40,958 bases of DNA, from positions 1 to 40,958 of the forward strand of contig JAPLHK010000029.1 in NCBI GenBank assembly GCA_026389715.1. Reading direction: 5' to 3'. Positions 25,458 to 40,958 of the stretch are shown piece after piece. The translations under genes and the position numbers were made by a program. Source of the DNA: Chloroflexota bacterium (lineage in GTDB: Bacteria; Chloroflexota; Dehalococcoidia; GIF9; UBA5629). Position 1 is the stretch's first letter. Every line of letters starts with the position of its first letter. The notes under the pieces are model-generated. The model ran no database searches. It had not been told where the DNA came from and worked only from the letters and a program-made list of their open reading frames with translations.

Positions 25458-26801
25458 ATGAGCATACTGAAGCTGAGTGATGAGAAGTACAGGGAAGTTG
25501 TCGCAGCCTACGAGAAGAAGACCCCCAAATCCAAAAAGCTCAACGAGGAATCGCGCAAATACATAGTGCCGATGGGCGCGCCCGCCTACATGATCTGGCA
25601 CAGGCCATACCCGCTCTTCATCGGTAATGCCCAAGGCTCGAAGCTCTACGACGTTGACGGCAACGAGTACATCGACATGTTTATCGACCAGGGCATCTCG
25701 TATATCGGCCACAAGGCGCCGGCCATACGCAAAGCCATCGATAAGGCCCTGGATAAATACGGCTTCCACCTGGAGATGTGCGAAGAACTTGCCACAAAGT
25801 GGGCGCAGAAGGTGATGCAGCATTACCCTTCCATCAAAAAGATCAAGATAGTCAATTCGGGCAACGAGGCTACCGAACTGGTCTGCCAGATCGCCCGCGC
25901 CTTCACCGGTAAAACCAAGATCATCAAGTTCGCCGGGCACCATCACGGCTGGAACGGGGTGTTGTCATACGACGCGCTGGCGGCCGGCTCCGGCACGCTC
26001 TTTACCCTGGGCATCCCCAATAACCACTGGGATAACCTGATAAACCTGCCGCCCAACGATATCGGTATAGTGGAGAAAGCGCTGAATGATAACAGGGACC
26101 AGGTGGCAGCCGTGGTGCTGGAACCGCTGGGGGCATCGACCGGCGGCACGCCGCTGGCCGAGGGATTCCAGAAACAGTTACGTGAATTGACCACCAAATA
26201 CAACGTGCTGCTGGCTTTCGACGAGGTGGCTACCGGCTTCCGTGTGGCCATCGGCGGGGCGCAGCAGGTACTGGACATAACGCCCGATCTCACCTGCCTG
26301 GGAAAGCCTGCCGGTGGCGGCATGCCCATCGGCGCCGTAGGCGGCCGCGAGGATGTAATGTCCGTGGTGGGCGCCCTGGACCCGCGGGCCGAGCATTTCG
26401 GTCCTCTCTTCCCCATGGGCTCATTCTGCGCACACCCGCTGGCCATGGCGGCCGGCATCGCCTTCATGGAGGAATTAGAGAAGGGTAACTACGTGCAAAA
26501 CTCCATCGACCGTGCGGCGCAGTTAGCCAAAGGCATCAACGAAATAACCGCCAGGCTGAAGTTGGACGTCTCGGCCCACTCTTTGTACAGCATCGTGCAC
26601 TTTGGGCTAAACGGCAAATTCGACATGAGCCAGGTTATGGAGGTCTTCGAGTTCGACCTCATGATCAGGCTGGGCCTGCTGCTGGGCAACCCGGGCGTAG
26701 TGCTGCTGCCCGGCCACGTTTATATGTCGGGCGTGATGACGGAGAAGGACATACATAAGAGCCTGGCTGCTTTTGAGGCCGCCTTCTCAATATATAAATA
26801 A
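25458..26801 (+). CDS. Class-III PLP-dependent aminotransferase/aminomutase (glutamate-1-semialdehyde aminomutase-like, divergent)
   Basis: Motifs VNSGNEATE, FDEVATGFR and CLGKPAGGGMPIGAVGG (PLP lysine context). ATG 25458 lies 5 nt after GGGAGGG. Confidence 0.8.
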   Translation: MSILKLSDEKYREVVAAYEKKTPKSKKLNEESRKYIVPMGAPAYMIWHRPYPLFIGNAQGSKLYDVDGNEYIDMFIDQGISYIGHKAPAIRKAIDKALDKYGFHLEMCEELATKWAQKVMQHYPSIKKIKIVNSGNEATELVCQIARAFTGKTKIIKFAGHHHGWNGVLSYDALAAGSGTLFTLGIPNNHWDNLINLPPNDIGIVEKALNDNRDQVAAVVLEPLGASTGGTPLAEGFQKQLRELTTKYNVLLAFDEVATGFRVAIGGAQQVLDITPDLTCLGKPAGGGMPIGAVGGREDVMSVVGALDPRAEHFGPLFPMGSFCAHPLAMAAGIAFMEELEKGNYVQNSIDRAAQLAKGINEITARLKLDVSAHSLYSIVHFGLNGKFDMSQVMEVFEFDLMIRLGLLLGNPGVVLLPGHVYMSGVMTEKDIHKSLAAFEAAFSIYK

Positions 26802-30621: not shown

Positions 30622-31287
30622 ATGAAAGATAAGAACCCTGGTGCAGAACGAGAAAAAATAGTCACGATCAGTGAAGCGAGCCAGATGCTGGGCGTCAATG
30701 AGGCCACACTGCGCCAGTGGACGGACGACGGTAAGCTCAAGGCTTTCGTGACTCCCGGGGGCCACCGGCGCTACTCAAAATCCGACCTGAAGAAATTCAG
30801 GGGGTTAAGCCAGAAGGTGCTGGGCGTCCAAGACCTGGTTATCGAACTGGAGGACACAACCAGACAGCACCGTGAGATCGAACGTAGCTTTATCAGCGGC
30901 GCTTCACGAACTGTTAAACCCGATGAAGCGCATCAAAAACAATTGGCCGACCTGGGACGCCGCCTGCTCAACCTTATCAACAGGTATATAAGTGAACCGG
31001 CGCACCGGGAGGAGATACTGACCATGGCCCACGAGGTCGGCAGTGGCTTCGGAAGGGTCCTGGCCGATCTGCAATTGCCCCTGACTGCTTCGGTGGAGGC
31101 GTTCCTGATGCACCGCGCCACCATCATGCAGGCGGCCGCCAACCTGATGGGCAAAAGGGAATCCTACGGTGGGCATATAGCAGAATCCATACCGCTGGCC
31201 AACCGTTTTCTCGACGAAACACTGGTCTCGATGATTGCCTCACACCAGGCGTGTTCAACCGCACCAAAAGAGGGAAACAGGGCATGA
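30622..31287 (+). CDS. HTH (MerR/excisionase-type) DNA-binding protein with a helical C-terminal sensor-like domain
   Basis: The N-terminus VTISEASQMLGVNEATLRQWTDDGKLKAFVTPGGHRRYSKSDL is an excisionase/MerR-like HTH. The ~150-aa helical C-terminal domain is of unknown function. The stop overlaps the ahbC start (ATGA). Confidence 0.7.
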   Translation: MKDKNPGAEREKIVTISEASQMLGVNEATLRQWTDDGKLKAFVTPGGHRRYSKSDLKKFRGLSQKVLGVQDLVIELEDTTRQHREIERSFISGASRTVKPDEAHQKQLADLGRRLLNLINRYISEPAHREEILTMAHEVGSGFGRVLADLQLPLTASVEAFLMHRATIMQAAANLMGKRESYGGHIAESIPLANRFLDETLVSMIASHQACSTAPKEGNRA

Positions 31288-32456
31288 TATCTGTATCACG
31301 CCTGCTCTGCGGCGCCGTCAGCCCGGGAGATGCCCTGCGCTACCGGGATGCCGCTACAACTCCGGGCCACCTGCATCAGCCGGCGCCCGGGCCGGTAGTC
31401 GTCTGGAACTGCACCGGACGTTGCAACCTGCGCTGCATACATTGCTATGCAAGCGCTGCAGATCGGAGCGCCGATGGGCAAATGGATAGTGCAGCAGGCA
31501 TGAAATTTATCACAGACATTGCGGAATTCAAGGTACCGGTTATCCTTTTCTCCGGAGGCGAACCCCTGCTGCGCAAAGATCTATTTAAGCTTGCCGGCTT
31601 TGCTTCCGCCAGGGGTATCAGGGTGGCACTGTCCACCAACGGCACTCTTATAGACGACAAGACGGCCGATGCTATTCAGAAAACCGGCTTTGCCGAGGTG
31701 GGCATCAGTCTCGACGGACTGGAACCTGTTAACGACCATTTCCGCGGGAAAGAGGGCGCCTACAGGGAAGCACTGCGTGGTATACGCAATTGCATAGCCC
31801 GGGGAATACGCGTTTCCCTGCGCCTGACCATTACCATGCATAACCACAGCGAGATACCCGCCATCTTTGACCTGGTCGAAGCGGAAGGCATCGACAGGGT
31901 CTGCTTCTACCACCTGGCTTATTCTGGGCGGGGGGACAACCTGCGCGGGCAGGATGTCACGCATGCCCAGGCACGGCACGCCGTGGACATTATCTGTGAA
32001 CGTACACTGGATATGTACAGGCGCGGCTTGCGCAAAGAAGTATTGACCGTGGGCAATCACGCGGATGGCGTATACCTGTATTTGAAAGTCCTGGCCACTG
32101 ACCACGTCCTTGCCGGCAGTATATTAGAGTTATTGACTTTGAACGGCGGCAACAATTCAGGCCTCAGGATAGGCGCTGTTGATGACCGCGGTAATGTTCA
32201 TCCCGACCAGTTCTGGCAAAGCCGGACGTTAGGCAACGTCACGCGGCGCAAATTCGGCGAGATATGGAGCGACACTTCCCAGCCGCTGCTGCAGGGGTTG
32301 AGAAACCGCAAGAAACTGCTCAAGGGCCGCTGCTCCCGCTGCAAATTCCTCGATATCTGCAACGGCAACCTGCGCGTGCGCGCCGAAGCGGTATACGGCG
32401 ATACCTGGGCAGAGGACCCGGCCTGCTACCTTAGCGAACTGGAGATCGGAGCTTAG
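31284..32456 (+). CDS. ahbC: Radical SAM/SPASM enzyme, NirJ1/AhbC type (Fe-coproporphyrin III synthase)
   Basis: N-terminus ISVSRLLCG...DALRY, then VVWNCTGRCNLRCIHCY (CxxxCxxC) and the C-terminal Cys cluster CSRCKFLDICNG. The AhbC versus AhbD assignment rests on N-terminal family resemblance only. Confidence 0.75.
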   Translation: MISVSRLLCGAVSPGDALRYRDAATTPGHLHQPAPGPVVVWNCTGRCNLRCIHCYASAADRSADGQMDSAAGMKFITDIAEFKVPVILFSGGEPLLRKDLFKLAGFASARGIRVALSTNGTLIDDKTADAIQKTGFAEVGISLDGLEPVNDHFRGKEGAYREALRGIRNCIARGIRVSLRLTITMHNHSEIPAIFDLVEAEGIDRVCFYHLAYSGRGDNLRGQDVTHAQARHAVDIICERTLDMYRRGLRKEVLTVGNHADGVYLYLKVLATDHVLAGSILELLTLNGGNNSGLRIGAVDDRGNVHPDQFWQSRTLGNVTRRKFGEIWSDTSQPLLQGLRNRKKLLKGRCSRCKFLDICNGNLRVRAEAVYGDTWAEDPACYLSELEIGA

Positions 32457-32457
32457 C

Positions 32458-34554
32458 ATGTCACCCGGTTCACCAACTACGATCATTCAGCCCAAATTGC
32501 TACTTGTAGCCTGGGAGGTCACACGGAGCTGCAATTTATTCTGCGCCCATTGCCGGGCCTCAGCGGGCAGCGGTCAATACGATGGGGAATTAGACACGCG
32601 GGATTGCTACGGCATCATCGACCAGATACTCGAGGTGGGAAAACCGGTGCTTATCCTGACCGGTGGCGAGCCGCTGGCCCGCGAGGATATATTTTCCATC
32701 GCTGAATACGCGGTGCGCAGCGGCCTGCGCGTGGTTATGGGCAGCAACGGGACACTGATTTCGCCCGCGATAGCAGCGAAATTAAAGGATATCCCTGTAT
32801 CGCGTGTTTCGGTCAGCCTTGATTTTCCCACCGCTGAATTGCAGGACAGCTTCCGCGGGCAACCGGGCGCCTATGAGGCCGCGCTGGCCGGCATCAGGAA
32901 TCTGCGCCTCGCCGGCGTTGAGGTGCAGGTCAACTGCACCCTGACCAAACTGAATATCGCCTATCTCAACGACCTGATTAATCTCGCCCTGGATGCGGGG
33001 GCCGTCGCCTTTCATCCCTTTTTCCTGGTGCCCACCGGCAGGGGAAAGGGACTTGAACAGGTCGAACTCAGCGCCAATGAATACGAGCAGGCGTTGAACT
33101 GGATATACGATAAACAACTGGAACTGGGCAGCAGCATTTTCTTCAAGCCGACCGATGCCCCGCATTACCTGCGGGTAATGAAACAACGTCAGAAGATAGC
33201 AATACAGGCGCCCCCGCGCGAGACTTCAATCCCCGGGGGTCACGCTGCGATGCATACTATCTCACGGGGATGCCTGGCAGGCACGGGATTCTGTTTCATT
33301 TCACATCGAGGGAAGGTGCAGGGTTGCGGCTATCTTGAAATAGAAGCGGGTGATTTGAGAAAACAGTCTTTCGCACAGGTATGGACTGATTCACCGCTGT
33401 TTGCAAAGCTAAGGGACATTGCCAACCTCAAGGGCAAATGCGGCGCCTGCGAGTATAAGAGGTTGTGCGGAGGTTGCCGCGCCCGCGCCTTTGAAACCAG
33501 CGGAGATTATCTTGAAGCCGAACCCTACTGCCTTTATCAACCGGCCATACCCAACGGAGATGCGTTAAATGTCTGTTCAGCGCTGGATGCCACGTCGCTC
33601 CGCCTGCTCGGCCTGCTGCAGTCGGAGTTTCCCATGACACGTGAACCCTATGCAGACCTGGGCGCCAAGCTGGGAATAGCGGGTGAAGAGGTGATCAGCC
33701 GGATTCAAGAGATGAAGCACGCGGGCATCGTAAGGCAGATCAGCCCGGTACTGGATGCCAGGCGGATCGGCTACCAGAGCACGCTCGTTGCTTTGAAGGT
33801 AAATACGATCAATATGGCGAGGGCAGAACAGGTTATCTCTGCCCACCCGGGCATCAGCCACGGCTACGAGAGGGAGCACGAATTCAATATATGGGTAACG
33901 CTATCGGTCCCGCCCGGCGTTGCCCTGAATACCGAACTCAAAGACCTGTCATTACGCACAGGCGCCGAAGCCATGTTCTCGCTGGCTGCGGTCAGGGTCT
34001 TCAAGCTGCGCACTAATTTCGGCGTTGATGAAGATGCCGGGACGGATTCCGGAATCCATCAAAATAATGACCTGGCGAAACGGACTGTATTATCCCCAGA
34101 GGACCGGGTAATAATTAACCTGCTGCAACAGGACCTCCCGCTATGCTACGATCCGTTTGCACAGATGTCAGCGGGCCTTGCAATGAGCGTGCCGTCCGTA
34201 CTGGGCCATTGTCGTTCGCTGCTTCAGCGTGGTGTTATGCGCCGCTATGGCGCGTCGATAAACCATTACAGGACCGGCTATACTGCTAATGCTATGACCT
34301 GCTGGGCGGTTCCAGCCAGCCGGGTTGAGTTTATGGGCCGCCGTCTGGCAGGACTGAAGCAGGTAAGCCACTGCTACGAGCGGGAAACCAACGAGTTCTG
34401 GCCTTATAACGTGTTTGCTATGTTACACGGCCGGTCCAAAGCAACCTGCAACCAGGTTGCGGACAAAATATCGGAAGATACGGGTATCTGTGACTACGTG
34501 GTACTATTCAGCGCCAGGGAATTTAAGAAAACCAGGATCCTTTACAGGGTATAG
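32458..34554 (+). CDS. ahbD-ahbAB: Fusion protein: radical SAM/SPASM NirJ2/AhbD-type heme synthase (aa ~1-362) plus two Lrp/AsnC-like siroheme decarboxylase modules, AhbA/AhbB (aa ~376-525 and ~544-698)
   Basis: AWEVTRSCNLFCAHCRA and the SPASM motif CGACEYKRLCGGCRARA. These are followed by LRLLGLLQSEFPMTREPY...ISHGYEREHEFNIWVTL and VIINLLQQDLPLCYDPF...VSHCYERETNEFWPYNVFAMLH. It is one uninterrupted 698-aa ORF. Confidence 0.8.
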   Translation: MSPGSPTTIIQPKLLLVAWEVTRSCNLFCAHCRASAGSGQYDGELDTRDCYGIIDQILEVGKPVLILTGGEPLAREDIFSIAEYAVRSGLRVVMGSNGTLISPAIAAKLKDIPVSRVSVSLDFPTAELQDSFRGQPGAYEAALAGIRNLRLAGVEVQVNCTLTKLNIAYLNDLINLALDAGAVAFHPFFLVPTGRGKGLEQVELSANEYEQALNWIYDKQLELGSSIFFKPTDAPHYLRVMKQRQKIAIQAPPRETSIPGGHAAMHTISRGCLAGTGFCFISHRGKVQGCGYLEIEAGDLRKQSFAQVWTDSPLFAKLRDIANLKGKCGACEYKRLCGGCRARAFETSGDYLEAEPYCLYQPAIPNGDALNVCSALDATSLRLLGLLQSEFPMTREPYADLGAKLGIAGEEVISRIQEMKHAGIVRQISPVLDARRIGYQSTLVALKVNTINMARAEQVISAHPGISHGYEREHEFNIWVTLSVPPGVALNTELKDLSLRTGAEAMFSLAAVRVFKLRTNFGVDEDAGTDSGIHQNNDLAKRTVLSPEDRVIINLLQQDLPLCYDPFAQMSAGLAMSVPSVLGHCRSLLQRGVMRRYGASINHYRTGYTANAMTCWAVPASRVEFMGRRLAGLKQVSHCYERETNEFWPYNVFAMLHGRSKATCNQVADKISEDTGICDYVVLFSAREFKKTRILYRV

Positions 34555-34561
34555 TGCGAGC

Positions 34562-35191
34562 ATGAATGCATACTATCCAATCTTTCTTAACCTCGCGGGG
34601 AAGAAATGCGTGGTGATCGGCGGCGGGCAGGTCGCGCTGCGCAAGGTGACAACCCTGCTCGAGTACGGTGCGGAAATAACGGTCATCAGCCCCCGCCTCT
34701 GTAAAGGCCTGCGTGAAGCGGACTGCGAGGGTAAAATACAGGTCAGGCGCCGCGCTTACCAGATAGGAGATTTAGAAGGCGCCTGTATCGCCGTCATTGC
34801 AGCGGGCAACCGCAGCGTTAACCTGCATGCCTCGCTGGAGGCCAGGTGCAATAAGATACCGGTCAACGTAGTGGACGATCCGGGCCTCTCCGATTTCATA
34901 GTGCCCTCGATCGTCCGCCGCGGTAGTATATCAATTGCGATCTCAACGGCCGGTAAAAGCCCGGCCCTGGCCCGCAAGCTGCGCAGCAAACTGGAAGGTG
35001 AGCTGGATGATAAGTATGCGGAATTAGCCCTGTTAATCGAAGGGGTGCGCAGGGAGGTCAAAAACCTTAAGCTAAAAGTCAGCAGTAAACAATGGCAGGA
35101 AGCCATTGATTTAGAACTTATGCTCGACCTGATCAGGCAGGGAAACAGCCAGAAGGCGCGGGCAATTTTACTCGAGAGGCTGAGTAAATAG
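34562..35191 (+). CDS. sirC: Precorrin-2 dehydrogenase / sirohydrochlorin ferrochelatase (SirC / CysG N-terminal / Met8-like)
   Basis: MNAYYPIFLNLAGKKCVVIGGGQVALRK is the family N-terminus. ATG is at 34562. The track ORF extends upstream into the preceding gene. Confidence 0.85.
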   Translation: MNAYYPIFLNLAGKKCVVIGGGQVALRKVTTLLEYGAEITVISPRLCKGLREADCEGKIQVRRRAYQIGDLEGACIAVIAAGNRSVNLHASLEARCNKIPVNVVDDPGLSDFIVPSIVRRGSISIAISTAGKSPALARKLRSKLEGELDDKYAELALLIEGVRREVKNLKLKVSSKQWQEAIDLELMLDLIRQGNSQKARAILLERLSK

Positions 35192-36451
35192 ATGTATTTT
35201 ACCCTTACCGGAATAAACCATCATTCAGCACCGATTGAAGTCCGTGAAAGGGCAGCCATCAATACTGAGGCCCTGCCCGCCGCCTTATTGCGCCTCCGGC
35301 AGTACGCGCCCCACTCGATAATACTATCCACCTGTAACCGCACCGAGATCTATGCAGCGGGACCTCATGCCGCTGATGTCAGCGGTGCATGTACCCGTTA
35401 TCTGAGGGACGCCCTGCAAGTGACGGAGGGCAGCCTGGCGACCTATATTTACACGGCAAGCGGTGAGGCGCTTTTCCGGCATCTCTGCAGCGTAGCCTGC
35501 GGACTCGATTCAATGGTTATCGGTGAATACGAGGTACTGGGCCAGGTCAGGCAGGCATTGACCGCCGCTGAAAAAGCGGGGATGGTCAATCTGCCGCTGC
35601 GCCACCTGTTCGAGGGCGCCATCCGCAGCGGCAGGCGGGCCCGCGAGGAAACCGGCATCAGCAAGAATGCGCTATCCATCAGTTCCATCGCTGTAAATAA
35701 GGCGCTCGCTATCATAACCGATATCAGCAATGCCAAAATCATCATAATAGGAGCGGGGGAAGCCGGCAGGCTGGCACTCAGGATTGCTCGCAGCAGGGGG
35801 GCCGGTGGTCTGGTAGTCGTCAGCCGCACCGAGCAGCGGGCGGTCGGTTTAGCAGTTCAGTACGGGGCCCGGCCGGTCAGCCACGACCAGCTTATAGCTG
35901 AAATGCGCGACGCTGATATCGTTATCACCTGTGCAGCCTCCCCACACCCTGTGCTGCACTACAAGCAGGTCAGTGAAGCCATAGACGGACGCAGCGGGCT
36001 ACCCCTGGTCATACTTGATATCGCCATGCCCAGGAATGTCGAACCATCAGTGCAGGAACTACCCGGCGTGCATCTTTATAACATCGACGACCTTAACCAT
36101 ATAGCCGAGGGACACCGGCTCGAACGTGAAACGGAGGTCCGGGCAGTTGAGAGGATTATAGGGGAAGAGGTTGCCATGCTGCTGAAATGGTGGCAGTCTT
36201 ATAATGCCAGGCCTGTTATTAAGTCGCTGATGCAAAGGGCTGAGCAAATCCGTTCCAAACAATACGGCAGGTCTGTAAAAAAGCTGCCTGCTCTCTCAGG
36301 TGAAGAACGGCAGGCTATTGATTTGCTGACCAGGTCCATAGTGGACAAGATACTCAGAGAGCCGATAATGTTTCTTAAATCAGGCGCGGGCAAAGACGGC
36401 TCAGAAGTTATCAGCCGGCTTTTCGGCCTTGATGATGAAAGCGAACCATGA
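35192..36451 (+). CDS. hemA: Glutamyl-tRNA reductase
   Basis: TGINHHSAPIEVRE, the active-site motif STCNRTEIY, and the NADPH fold IIIGAGEAG. The start codon abuts the sirC stop. Confidence 0.9.
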   Translation: MYFTLTGINHHSAPIEVRERAAINTEALPAALLRLRQYAPHSIILSTCNRTEIYAAGPHAADVSGACTRYLRDALQVTEGSLATYIYTASGEALFRHLCSVACGLDSMVIGEYEVLGQVRQALTAAEKAGMVNLPLRHLFEGAIRSGRRAREETGISKNALSISSIAVNKALAIITDISNAKIIIIGAGEAGRLALRIARSRGAGGLVVVSRTEQRAVGLAVQYGARPVSHDQLIAEMRDADIVITCAASPHPVLHYKQVSEAIDGRSGLPLVILDIAMPRNVEPSVQELPGVHLYNIDDLNHIAEGHRLERETEVRAVERIIGEEVAMLLKWWQSYNARPVIKSLMQRAEQIRSKQYGRSVKKLPALSGEERQAIDLLTRSIVDKILREPIMFLKSGAGKDGSEVISRLFGLDDESEP

Positions 36452-37368
36452 AAAATAAGGTGAGTATCGGGACGAGGGGAAGCAGGCTGGCCATGATACA
36501 GGCCAACATAGTGGCCTCGGCGCTGAAGCGTGCCCACCCCACCATTGAAATAGAGATACGCAGGATAGTGACGGAGGGCGACCGCAACCGCAACATGAGC
36601 ATAGATGATGCAGGCAACACCGGCATCTTCGTCAAGGCGCTGGAAGAAGCCCTGGCAGATAAGCGCGTTGACGTCGCCGTGCACAGCCTCAAGGATATGC
36701 CAACGGAACTTCCCGGCGACATGTGCCTGGCAGCGGTGATGGAAAGGCTTGATCCCCGCGATGCGCTGGTCGCAGTTGCCCGGCTTGGCGAACTCCAGCC
36801 GGGCTCCAGGATAGGCACGGGCAGTCTGCGCCGCACCGCTCAGCTCAAAAATCTGCGCAGTGACCTGCAGGTCATTAATATACGCGGCAACGTGGACAGC
36901 CGCCTGCGCAAAGTGAACTCGGGTGAAATGCAGGGGATTATCGTTGCCGCCGCTGCCATGATAAGGCTTGGCTGGGATGATAAAATAACGGAGTACCTGC
37001 CGCTTGGGTCCTTCCTGCCTGCCGTGGGGCAGGGTGCGCTGGCCGTTGAAGCCAGGAAAGGTGACCGCGTTACACAAGAATATATGACCGTCCTGAATCA
37101 TCTTCCCACCTGGCAGGCGGTGACTGCGGAACGGGCTTTCCTGCATACTGTAGAAGGAGGCTGCCGCGCACCGGTCGCGGCACTGGCCACTGTGAATGGT
37201 CAAATACTGAATATAACCGCCATGGTAGCGGATAAAGCAGGAACAAAGATAATAAAAAAGTCACTCAAGGGTGATGCCCGGCAACCGGAGATCGCGGGAA
37301 TAAAATTGGCACAGATAATGTTGGAAGCAGGCGCAGCCTCATTGATTGCTGAGATAAGATGTCAATAA
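36448..37368 (+). CDS. hemC: Hydroxymethylbilane synthase (porphobilinogen deaminase)
   Basis: IGTRGSRLAMIQA and the cofactor Cys context EGGCRAPVAA. ATGA overlap with hemA. Confidence 0.9.
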   Translation: MKNKVSIGTRGSRLAMIQANIVASALKRAHPTIEIEIRRIVTEGDRNRNMSIDDAGNTGIFVKALEEALADKRVDVAVHSLKDMPTELPGDMCLAAVMERLDPRDALVAVARLGELQPGSRIGTGSLRRTAQLKNLRSDLQVINIRGNVDSRLRKVNSGEMQGIIVAAAAMIRLGWDDKITEYLPLGSFLPAVGQGALAVEARKGDRVTQEYMTVLNHLPTWQAVTAERAFLHTVEGGCRAPVAALATVNGQILNITAMVADKAGTKIIKKSLKGDARQPEIAGIKLAQIMLEAGAASLIAEIRCQ

Positions 37369-38885
37369 CCAAGGGGAAGGTCTACCTGATTGGCGCGGGC
37401 CCGGGCGACCCCGGGCTGATCACCCTGAAGGCTGTAAACTGCCTGGCAAAGGCAGATGTAGTGGTTTACGACTACTTAGTCAGCAGCCTTATACTTGATT
37501 ACGCGCCGGCAGCGGCGGAAAAGATCTATGCCGGTAAGATGGGAGGCAAGCATTTCGCCGAGCAGGATGAGATAAACGGCCTCCTGGTCCGGAAGGCACA
37601 CCAGGGGAAGACCGTCGCCCGGCTCAAGGGGGGCGACCCTTTTGTGCTCGGCCGCGGGGGTGAAGAGGCCGAAGTCCTGCGAAAAAATAATATCCTTTTT
37701 GAGATCGTGCCGGGCGTGACATCGGCCGTGGCCGTACCGGCCTATGCCGGTATACCGGTCACCCACCGCGGGCTGGCGTCTTCCCTGGCCATCATCACCG
37801 GCCATGAAGACCCGTCCAAGAAAAGTTCCAGCATAAGGTGGGACAAGCTGGCCACAGCTACCGACACACTGGTTATACTGATGGGCATGCAAAACCTTGC
37901 CCAGATAACGGCCCGGCTGATGGAACACGGCAGAAAAGCTTCAACCCCGGTTGCGGTAATTAAGGACGGCACGCTTCCATCGCAGGTTTGTATAACGGGC
38001 ACATTGAGAAATATCGCTGGCAGGGTAAGGCAAGCCGGACTTGAAGCTCCGGCAGTCATAGTTGTGGGAGAGGTTGCCAGGCTACGTGAAAGCCTGCGCT
38101 GGTTCGACTCCCTCCCGCTTTTCGGCAAGCGTGTCCTCGTCACCCGTGCCGGCAGCCAGGCCGGCAGCTTTGAAAAACTGCTCGCGGAGCATGGCTCCCT
38201 GCCGGTACGCTTTTCGAGCATAGAGATAAAGCCCATCACAACTTGTAAGAGATTAGACAACGCCCTTGCAAATATAAATAAATACAACTGGATCGCCTTT
38301 ACCAGTGTCAACGGCGTGGAGATATTTTTCAGCCGCCTGCGTGCTCTTGGCCTGGATTCCCGCTGCCTGTCCGGCCTGAAAATCGGCGCAATCGGGCCAA
38401 TGACCGGCCGGGCGCTGCAGAAAATGGGCATTACGCCGGATTACCTGCCTGCCGAATTTACCGGGCGGGGTTTCATCACCGGGCTGAAAAAACGGCAGGT
38501 CGGCGGGCAAATGTTCCTGCTGCCCCGCGCCGAGATAGCCGACGATGAGATATCACGGGGGCTGAAAAAACTGGGGGCTGCGGTCGATGAAATAGCCATC
38601 TACCGCACGGTGCGCCCACGCACCAATAAAAACAGGCTCCGTGAACTGCTGCTGAGGGACGGCATCGACATTGTCACCTTTACCAGTTCCTCAACCGTCA
38701 CCAACCTGCTATCCAGCCTCAGTCAAGGTGAGATCGCAGGGATACGGCCCAAAATCGCCTGCATAGGCCCGAAGACTGCCCGCACCGCTGCCGCGGCAGG
38801 TTTAAAGATAGACATAATTGCCGGGGAGCAGACCATTCCGGGGTTACTGGCAGCGATGGAAGACTATTTCAGGAAGGAGGCTTAA
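37359..38885 (+). CDS. cobA-hemD: Uroporphyrinogen-III C-methyltransferase fused to uroporphyrinogen-III synthase
   Basis: N-terminus VYLIGAGPGDPGLITLKA, plus GGDPFVLGRGGEE. The C-terminal ~250 aa are HemD-like (LFGKRVLVTR...WIAFTSVNGV...IVTFTSSSTV). Confidence 0.9.
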   Translation: MSITKGKVYLIGAGPGDPGLITLKAVNCLAKADVVVYDYLVSSLILDYAPAAAEKIYAGKMGGKHFAEQDEINGLLVRKAHQGKTVARLKGGDPFVLGRGGEEAEVLRKNNILFEIVPGVTSAVAVPAYAGIPVTHRGLASSLAIITGHEDPSKKSSSIRWDKLATATDTLVILMGMQNLAQITARLMEHGRKASTPVAVIKDGTLPSQVCITGTLRNIAGRVRQAGLEAPAVIVVGEVARLRESLRWFDSLPLFGKRVLVTRAGSQAGSFEKLLAEHGSLPVRFSSIEIKPITTCKRLDNALANINKYNWIAFTSVNGVEIFFSRLRALGLDSRCLSGLKIGAIGPMTGRALQKMGITPDYLPAEFTGRGFITGLKKRQVGGQMFLLPRAEIADDEISRGLKKLGAAVDEIAIYRTVRPRTNKNRLRELLLRDGIDIVTFTSSSTVTNLLSSLSQGEIAGIRPKIACIGPKTARTAAAAGLKIDIIAGEQTIPGLLAAMEDYFRKEA

Positions 38886-39869
38886 ATGCCGGATTACCCA
38901 GTGTCACGCTTACGCCGCCTGAGGAAGAGCGAGGCGCTCAGGTCGCTGGTCAGGGAAAACACCGTAGACGCGGGCGATTTCATTTTTCCCCTTTTCATTG
39001 TAGAAGGCAAAGGCGTTAAGAAAGAGATCGATACCATGCCCGGAATTTACCATTTCTCAGTAGATAAGCTGGGCAAAGAGACAGCTGACCTTTTGCGCCT
39101 GAGGATACCCGCGGTACTGCTTTTCGGTGTGGTCAACGCCAAGGACGAGTGGGGATCGGGCGCCTATCACCCCCGGGGAGTGGTGCAGCAGGCCATCCGT
39201 GCCATCAAGAAAGCTGCGCCCGGCTTGCTGGTGATAACAGATGTATGCCTGTGCGAATACACCAGTCACGGCCACTGCGGCGTCATCGAAAACGGTGACG
39301 TGGACAACGACAAGACCCTGCCGCTGCTGGCCAAAATGGCGCTCTCCCATGCTGAAGCGGGGGCAGACATGGTAGCGCCATCCGACATGATGGACGGCCG
39401 TGTAAAAGCCATCCGGGAGGCGCTGGACGGCAATGGATTCAACTCCCTACCCATCATGGCCTACGCTGCGAAATACGCCTCAGCTTTCTACGGTCCATTC
39501 AGGGAAGCTGCCGGCTCGGCGCCGCAGTTCGGCAACCGCAAATCATACCAGATGGACCCGCCCAATGTGCGCGAAGCCCTCAGGGAGATAGAACAGGATA
39601 TACGGGAAGGCGCCGATATCGTTATGGTCAAGCCGGCGCTCGCTTACCTCGACGTCATCCGGCGGGCGCGCGAGACTTTCAACCACCCGCTGGCGGCATA
39701 TAATGTCAGCGGCGAGTACGCCATGGTCAAAGCGGCCGCCTCCCTGGGCTGGATAGATGAAAAACGTATCGTGCTCGAGATACTCACCTCTATCAAAAGA
39801 GCGGGGGCCGATATTATCATTACGTACCACGCCAAAGAAGCCGCAACCTGGCTTGCGGAACAAGGTTAA
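38886..39869 (+). CDS. hemB: Porphobilinogen synthase (ALA dehydratase), Zn/Cys-rich type
   Basis: RLRRLR...PLF, the Cys-rich metal site [14 protein letters not shown], and the active-site context MVKPAL. Confidence 0.9.
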
Positions 39870-39875
39870 ACTGTT

Positions 39876-40958
39876 ATGAAAAAAACGCAGGTATCAAAGC
39901 GGTTATTCAAGGAAGCCCGGCGCGTGCTGCCGGGCGGCGTGGACAGCCCTGTGCGGGCCTACAAGGCGGTCGGCGGCACACCCCGCTTTATCGTCAGGGG
40001 CAGGGGTTCGAAACTTTACGACGCCGACGGAAACCGTTATATCGATTATGTGGGCTCATGGGGTCCGCTCATACTCGGCCACGCTGACAAACGGGTGACC
40101 TCCGCCGTGAAACTCACGGTCATTCGGACAGCCTGCTGGTCAGCGGCGGTTCGGGCATGGCCACGCTGGGCATCCCCGATTCTCCAGGCGTACTCAGGCA
40201 GGCCGCCCGCTATACACTGGTAGCCGCTTATAACGACATACAATCAGTACAGCGCCTGTTTGACGAATATCCTGGTGAAATCGCGGCCGTTATCGTCGAA
40301 CCGGTAGCGGCAAATATGGGAGTCGTCCAACCGGCGAGGGGCTTCCTCGGGAGCCTGCGCAGACTTACCAAAAAATACGGTGCGCTGCTGATCTTCGATG
40401 AGGTGATCACAGGGTTCCGTATCGATTACGGGGGAGCGCAGGGGCTCTTCAGCATAAAGCCCGATATTACCTGCCTGGGTAAAATCATCGGCGGTGGGCT
40501 GCCCGTGGGAGCTTACGGAGGAAGGCGGGACATAATGAAGATGATGGCTCCCGAGGGCCAGGTCTACCAGGCCGGCACTTTGTCCGGCAATCCGCTGGCC
40601 ATGACAGCCGGCATTGAAACGCTGCGCAAACTGAATGATGAGCGGGTTTACCGCCAGTTGGAGGAAAGAACAACCGCCCTGCAGGAGGGAATAGCTGCGG
40701 CAGCCTGCCAGGCCTGCATACCGCTCAGCATAGCGCGGGCAGGTTCGCTACTGACGGTGTTTTTCAGCGGAGGCGAAGTATCGGACTACTCTTCGGCACG
40801 CAGTTGCGATACCGGCCTTTTCGCGAAGTTCTTCAACTCTTTGCTCAACGACGGGATCTACTGGCCGCCATCGCAATTCGAAGCCGCCTTCGTCTCACTG
40901 GCCCACAGCCCGCAGGACATAGAAACTACAATCCGGGCAGCAGGCAAAGCATTTAAGA
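39876..40958 (+). pseudogene. hemL: Glutamate-1-semialdehyde 2,1-aminomutase, disrupted by an internal deletion plus frame change; the 3' end runs off the window
   Basis: Frame A (39876..40223) reads [12 protein letters not shown]...[20 protein letters not shown] and then nonsense to a stop. A second frame, open from 40088, reads [25 protein letters not shown]...DEVITGFR...[17 protein letters not shown]... to the window end. About 66 family-conserved residues between the two parts are absent, including the NSGTEA region. Confidence 0.7.

Follow-up and report, generated by a model that had tools for sequence, protein, structure and literature searches.

How a genome comes to encode the first and the last enzyme of a metabolic branch in one gene is the question raised by contig JAPLHK010000029.1, a stretch of 40,958 nucleotides (hereafter the window) from the metagenome-assembled genome (MAG) of a Chloroflexota bacterium (GCA_026389715.1; G000 in our genome set; 2.0 Mb, 120 contigs, 93% complete). 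The branch leads from siroheme to haem by way of AhbA/AhbB, AhbC and AhbD. A first-pass annotation of the window had noted that these four are separate proteins in Desulfovibrio and Methanosarcina and that AhbAB fusions are known, in agreement with the published work (PMC4145669, PMC3942049); the literature describes AhbAB as fused in most archaea. The window contains an open reading frame (ORF) of 698 aa, ahbD-ahbA-ahbB (32458..34554, on the forward strand like its domains and the other operon genes described below), which runs in a single frame without a stop. It encodes a single polypeptide that joins AhbD to AhbA-AhbB with the catalytic motifs all intact, and comparison with close relatives identified the deletion that created it. 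The first-pass annotation had already seen one uninterrupted ORF with a radical SAM/SPASM part followed by two NirD/L-type modules; this description stands, and its coordinates for the parts were right to within a few codons.

Pfam searches assigned a Radical_SAM domain (residues 20-176), a SPASM domain (272-331), two NirDL-like helix-turn-helix (HTH) domains and two AsnC_trans_reg2 domains to the fused ORF. The AhbD domain (residues 16-362; 32503..33543) matched NCBIfam model TIGR04545 over its entire length (profile positions 1-339 of 339) with 450 bits, which made it the top-scoring NCBIfam model, yet is less than the curated equivalog cut-off of 500 bits; the AhbC model reached 189 bits on the same half of the protein. 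The AhbD domain of the metagenome protein P0011, which is 63% identical to that of the window, scored 670 bits for the AhbD model. The radical SAM motif CxxxCxxC (C25-x3-C29-x2-C32) and seven cysteines in the SPASM part (C272, C290, C328, C331, C337, C340 and C358) did not vary across 26 aligned fusion proteins. For M. barkeri AhbD, two auxiliary [4Fe-4S] clusters have been reported. We also considered a role in the haem d1 pathway and rejected it, as the NirJ model TIGR04051 gave 196 bits against a cut-off of 515 and the source genome had no Cytochrom_D1 match.

The AhbD domain is followed by a linker (residues 363-381; 33544..33600) which, by comparison with congeners carrying split genes, consists of the old C-terminal tail of AhbD and the old N-terminus of AhbAB. 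The AhbA module (residues 382-521; 33601..34020; NF040708, 198 bits, cut-off 140) has an HTH and an AsnC-like beta-sheet domain, and the AhbB module (residues 552-696; 34111..34545) matched NF040707 with 229 bits (cut-off 125); the linker between them (residues 522-551; 34021..34110) varies in length among homologues. Both modules carry the HxYxR motif that was defined for the siroheme decarboxylase family (PMC4145669), as H468-G-Y470-E-R472 in AhbA and H638-C-Y640-E-R642 in AhbB, and these positions, together with K690/K691 of the AhbB module, were invariant in the same 26-protein alignment. The AhbA module aligned to chain A and the AhbB module to chain B of the D. desulfuricans structure (4czd_A and 4czd_B), and the 315 C-terminal residues (382-696) aligned end to end with residues 7-319 of NirDL (PDB 4CH7/4CZC; 234 bits). 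By analogy with these structures, the HxYxR residues of both modules would face the inter-subunit cavity.

Two groups of characterised proteins thus frame the window's fusion. NirDL of Hydrogenobacter thermophilus and the fused archaeal AhbAB proteins likewise form a siroheme decarboxylase from two AsnC/Lrp-like modules in one chain, but have no radical SAM domain attached, and NirDL serves haem d1 synthesis. The AhbA/AhbB heterodimer of D. desulfuricans (PDB 4CZD/4UN1) and AhbD of M. barkeri share the motifs of the fusion and are expected to catalyse the same reactions, but are separate polypeptides whereas the window encodes one chain. An AlphaFold2 model calculated from the 26-sequence alignment had a mean predicted local distance difference test (pLDDT) score of 85 and was confident inside the domains, with the exception of an AhbD loop (residues 249-269), and its secondary structure fits two AsnC/Lrp-like modules, each with an HTH and a beta-sheet domain. 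The pLDDT fell below 50 at residues 365-370 and 524-536, within the two linkers, and the predicted template modelling score (pTM) was 0.61. Both linkers are therefore predicted to be flexible, with the three modules on flexible tethers.

Could two genes have been merged into the single frame by an error of assembly or sequencing? The source genome is fragmented into 120 contigs and contains at least one assembly error, a deletion of 196 nt in hemL, and the first-pass annotation had pointed to positions 33540..33590 as the place where a stop codon might have been lost. Public sequencing runs from three studies of freshwater and lake metagenomes contain the sampled stretch in full, and 89% of its sampled words were present in a lake metatranscriptome. 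Across the junction, the Logan contigs of DNA runs X1, X2 and X5, one from each study, and of RNA run X10 matched the window with neither a mismatch nor a gap, so that the open frame at these positions is borne out by independent DNA and RNA contigs. The RNA contig spans positions 33440-33693, across the junction; hence, the fused gene is transcribed in situ. The hemL gene served as a positive control. Its profile positions 2-98 and 141-420 are found in different frames in the window; between 40114 and 40115 the DNA contig of X1 and the RNA contig of X10 have 196 extra letters, and the expected ERIIKFEGCY is encoded by the loose ends of X2 and X5 at hemL. Since the deletion is visible in the same runs, the contig test is able to detect assembly errors. 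The hemL frameshift is an assembly error and the real genome most likely has an intact hemL, which rules out the reading of hemL as a pseudogene that would signal decay of the pathway. With the same gapless junction in four independently assembled data sets, and the same deletion in a second species-level MAG (G003, see below), we consider the chance that the fusion is an artefact to be negligible.

We searched 40 related genomes for AhbD and AhbAB to trace the origin of the fusion. The closest congeners (G012, G004, G009, G011 and G016) encode AhbD and AhbAB in two adjacent ORFs in different frames. Their ahbD ends with ...AAT GCC TGA, and an overlap of 8 nt, ATGCCTGA, holds both the start codon of ahbAB and the stop codon of ahbD. 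In the ancestral state of the genus, ahbD and ahbAB were thus separate genes that shared these 8 nt. The window carries the scar ATGTCTG/T at this site (33569..33576), where the slash marks the A of the ahbD stop codon TGA that was lost between 33575 and 33576; the former ahbAB ATG (33569-33571) is out of frame. G012, G004 and G009 read AATGCCTGATTCAG or AATGACTGATGCAG here, whereas the window and G003, the second species-level genome of the genus with the fusion, read AATGTCTG-TTCAG and share both the deletion and the flanking substitutions. Loss of this A removed the stop codon of ahbD and at the same time shifted translation into the ahbAB frame, and the tryptic peptide of the fused protein that spans the junction would be ...NGDALNVCSALDATSLR. 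In an alignment of the 3271 nt of ahbC and the fusion, G012 is 95.5% and G004 94.0% identical to the window, and the TGA deletion is the only indel with respect to either. Because congeners with ∼94-96% identical DNA have the split genes, the fusion must be young.

The old ahbAB start can no longer serve as an internal start, as its frame now meets a stop after 22 codons. The next in-frame methionine is M393, and a start there would cost part of the HTH. With its old start out of frame, AhbAB can now be made only within the fusion. Full-length matches in three other related genomes (G021, G029 and G024) contain in-frame stops that divide each into two ORFs, and were not counted as fusions. A second X10 record (window positions 33300-33557; 17 differences in 258 nt) shows that a related strain is transcribed in the same lake. 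This contig ends with ...AATGCCTGT and lacks the TGA of the split congeners, but is too short to distinguish a substitution from the same 1-nt deletion.

We next asked how widespread the architecture is. Within a collection of 5.8 billion proteins, at least 45 of the best 120 clusters were full-length D-A-B fusions of ∼650-840 aa that are 39-59% identical to the fusion in the window. Sources that gave these proteins a name called them no more than 'radical SAM protein' or 'heme b synthase'. The fusions from Chloroflexota/Dehalococcoidia MAGs (P0002-P0010), those of a Planctomycetota/Anaerolineales type (P0017) and those of an Eggerthellaceae type (P0037/P0105) resemble that of the window in domain order, invariant cysteines and HxYxR motifs, but fall on other branches of the AhbD tree, with split relatives in between. 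There is also one mention in print: an AhbAB-AhbD gene fusion was noted in five Methanomicrobia assemblies (cluster 36.2; PMC11237513, mSystems 2024). Like the fusion in the window, the archaeal gene encodes an AdoMet-dependent haem synthase along with siroheme decarboxylase and is biochemically uncharacterised; it is described in a single sentence that gives neither domain order nor origin, whereas the fusion in the window is bacterial (Chloroflexota-like), independent and recent, and traceable to a defined 1-nt deletion. The literature searched yielded no biochemical work on a D-A-B fusion and no mention of bacterial cases, and a 2026 review of haem biosynthesis that gives other fusions in the pathway does not include this one. 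The first-pass annotation had held that its claim would be weakened if the architecture proved to be common and already annotated; it is common in sequence databases and, for Methanomicrobia, has appeared once in print.

To place the fusions in named genomes we mapped ORFs at 80 loci from species-representative genomes retrieved by tblastn. Many loci with full tblastn coverage turned out to be adjacent separate genes, and true single-ORF D-A-B fusions were present in three, from a Planctomycetota MAG (L013), an Anaerolineales MAG (L018) and a Phycisphaerales MAG (L048). Two others had D-A-only fusions with AhbB encoded by a separate gene downstream, in a 'delta proteobacterium' MAG (L032:5986-7509) and a Planctomycetia MAG (L044:5929-7542). 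Elsewhere among the 80 loci, ahbD and ahbAB were split but adjacent in most Dehalococcoidia, ahbD was followed by ahbA in many Desulfobacterota, and ahbD, ahbA and ahbB followed one another as three genes in Bacillota and Methanolobus. The genes follow this D-A-B order in M. barkeri as well (Mbar_A1458/1459/1460; PMC3942049), so that the D-then-A(B) order is seen in Chloroflexota, Bacillota, Desulfobacterota, Methanolobus and M. barkeri. About 1 in 3 of the ahbD/ahbA pairs are separated by a single in-frame stop; we discarded read-through as an explanation, since this is the proportion predicted by chance agreement of frames. AhbD homologues that are 58-61% identical to the AhbD domain in the window and have neither AhbA/B nor AhbC adjacent were found in Thermoleophilia and Actinomycetes MAGs (L028, L030, L033, L038, L040 and L045), which fits the published idea that some Gram-positive users of the coproporphyrin pathway took over AhbD to decarboxylate coproheme anaerobically.

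To explain a maximum-likelihood tree of 114 AhbD domains, no fewer than 8 changes between the fused and the split condition were required, and well-supported branches force at least 6 of them (mean of 26.8 after shuffling). The tree contains deep clades in which all members are fused, with 12 rows of the Eggerthellaceae type and 10 of the Planctomycetota/Anaerolineales type, as well as several separate fusion events within Chloroflexota. The window belongs to a group of four with 98% support, along with split G004 and G012 and fused G003. Hence, the fusion in the window is an independent and recent event, while other lineages have long retained theirs. The existence of several old, wholly fused clades shows that the D-A-B fusion is tolerated and has been repeatedly retained.

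The fusion comes third in a tightly packed operon that covers every step from glutamyl-tRNA to haem. The first gene (30622..31287) encodes a protein of 221 aa with a BldC/excisionase-type HTH (NCBIfam HTH_BldC, 44 bits, residues 13-58) and an unassigned C-terminal part, which may be a regulator of the operon; its end overlaps the start of ahbC. The ahbC gene (31284..32456) encodes a NirJ1-type radical SAM 12,18-didecarboxysiroheme deacetylase, with 559 bits for NirJ1 (TIGR04054) and 518 bits for AhbC (TIGR04546, profile positions 1-387) versus 192 bits for AhbD. The score contrast in both proteins settles which of the two radical SAM enzymes is AhbC and which is AhbD, an assignment that the first-pass annotation had made correctly but tentatively. 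The stop codon TAG of ahbC (32454-32456) is 1 nt before the ATG of the fusion. Downstream, 7 nt past the stop of the fusion, is the true ATG of a precorrin-2 dehydrogenase/sirohydrochlorin ferrochelatase of the CysG N-terminal type (34562..35191; TIGR01470, 153 bits), followed by hemA (35192..36451), hemC (36448..37368), a cobA-hemD fusion (37359..38885) and hemB (38886..39869), all four with NCBIfam matches above the cut-off. The operon continues with hemL (39876..40957), which is interrupted in the assembly, lies in two frames with the 196-nt deletion between 40114 and 40115, and extends past the end of the window. The fusion of CobA (uroporphyrinogen-III C-methyltransferase) to HemD (uroporphyrinogen-III synthase) is known and widespread and is also mentioned in PMC11237513. 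Two more genes of the HemL-like glutamate-1-semialdehyde aminomutase family, at C20:14855-16138 in the source genome (275 bits) and at 25602-26612 in the window (264 bits), both score below the hemL cut-off.

Searches of the source genome found no second copy of AhbD or AhbA/B, no ferrochelatase and no cytochrome cd1; therefore, no route to haem other than the operon is visible, and a role in haem d1 synthesis was dismissed. The same genome lacks cytochrome bd and has almost no candidate clients among c-type cytochromes, with only one ORF containing two CxxCH motifs. Weak matches to NarI/DsrM-type dihaem-b membrane domains were observed at C58:15448-15858 and C23:31407-31826, inside ORFs of 715 and 660 aa. 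No candidate haem b clients other than these two ORFs were found.

What, then, does the fused protein do? The fusion is probably a genuine, expressed trifunctional polypeptide whose modules act as they do when separate and were joined through the adjacency of their genes. The AhbA-AhbB part would fold intramolecularly like NirDL and convert siroheme to 12,18-didecarboxysiroheme. This product would leave for the separate AhbC, encoded directly upstream, which would form coproheme, and coproheme would return to the AhbD domain of the fusion, a putative radical SAM haem b synthase, for conversion to haem b. A flexible linker of ∼20 residues would tie AhbD to the AhbA-AhbB pseudo-heterodimer. Steps 1 and 4 of the branch were probably joined because their genes are neighbours in the conserved ahbD-ahbA(B) order, rather than out of chemical need. 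Given that the fused domains are always operon neighbours while the fused steps are non-consecutive, gene order combined with overlapping stop and start codons is the most economical explanation. If the fusion brings any benefit, it probably lies in a fixed 1:1 stoichiometry, in the co-folding or the stability of AhbAB, or in keeping pathway enzymes together.

Fusion of pathway enzymes encoded by adjacent genes has precedents in CobA-HemD, HemH-HemQ of Cutibacterium acnes and AhbC-AhbD, but other fusions in haem pathways mostly join consecutive or near-consecutive steps, whereas that of the window joins branch steps 1 and 4. AhbC-AhbD fusions, which join consecutive steps, are represented by three metagenome proteins of 766-772 aa (P0011, P0012 and P0013); in P0011, AhbC (residues 2-385, 735 bits) precedes AhbD (422-761, 670 bits). 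Together with the D-A-B fusions they mean that all enzymes of the pathway are tethered in some lineage, as might be expected if the fusion formed a metabolon with AhbC in which siroheme, didecarboxysiroheme, coproheme and haem pass from site to site and if the join had been selected for this purpose. Such a scaffold would also profit from co-expression with AhbC, as implied by the 1-nt spacing of the two genes, and from the tight binding of the AhbA/B product (PMC4145669), which would favour direct hand-over; the persistence of fused clades across deep divergence points the same way. However, the fused domains catalyse non-consecutive steps, the nearest relatives manage with split genes, the choice of the fused domains tracks gene order, and the linkers are predicted to be flexible in a model with a low pTM. 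We therefore regard selection for channelling as rather unlikely. The first-pass annotation had proposed substrate channelling or a scaffold recruiting AhbC; while the fusion and the enzyme assignments that it reported hold, nothing we found shows either of these.

A tether could alternatively act by feedback, with haem made by AhbD handed directly to a haem-binding site on AhbAB and tuning entry into the branch. Haem b co-purifies with AhbA/B of D. vulgaris and M. barkeri, and regulation by feedback has been proposed (PMC4145669, PMC3942049), but M. barkeri AhbAB was not inhibited in vitro when haem was added (PMC3942049) and AhbA/B of D. desulfuricans was not loaded with haem in the same way (PMC4145669), which makes this mechanism highly improbable. 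Taken as one claim, a functional tether, in which the D-A-B protein either nucleates a complex with AhbC in which iron tetrapyrroles are retained all the way from siroheme to haem or feeds new haem to a regulatory site on AhbAB, appears unlikely; if it were true, the at least 6 independent fusions would reflect selection for coupling.

The youth of the fusion raises the opposite prospect, namely that it is a neutral or slightly deleterious accident, a recent frameshift that left both enzymes usable but brought no benefit or impaired AhbAB. It arose by the commonest kind of mutation, and sister species with ∼94-96% identical DNA are split. Against this, the fusion is common to two species-level genomes (G000 and G003), it is present in lakes of three studies and in RNA, it is the sole source of AhbAB and AhbD in a genome whose operon is the only visible haem route, its motifs are intact, and the same architecture has been stably kept in old clades. 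An accident of this kind is in our view very unlikely.

Several points weigh against the reading that we prefer, a trifunctional protein with independently acting modules that were joined through gene adjacency. The AhbD domain scores below its equivalog cut-off, and the enzymatic roles assigned to D-A-B fusions in general are based on sequence. The AlphaFold2 model provides no reliable inter-domain geometry. The evidence for the junction comes from Logan contigs rather than per-read counts, so that a minority split allele is possible in the population. Finally, the persistence of old fused clades is consistent with tolerance and with benefit alike, and a channelling advantage with AhbC is possible.

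For haem biology the finding is a minor one, as the siroheme-dependent enzymes are known, the architecture is present in databases and it has one mention in print. It does show how such fusions keep arising: where stop and start codons overlap, a single deletion is enough to fuse neighbours in an operon, and this explains why the fusion has originated repeatedly. It also bears on annotation: where pipelines give the fusions no other name than 'radical SAM protein', the genomes that encode them may seem to lack siroheme decarboxylase. What is new here is that a fusion has been caught shortly after its birth, with the exact mutation identified. The split genes of G012 and G004 and the fused gene of G000 and G003 form an almost isogenic natural pair in which the effects of tethering on flux, stability and complex formation can be compared.

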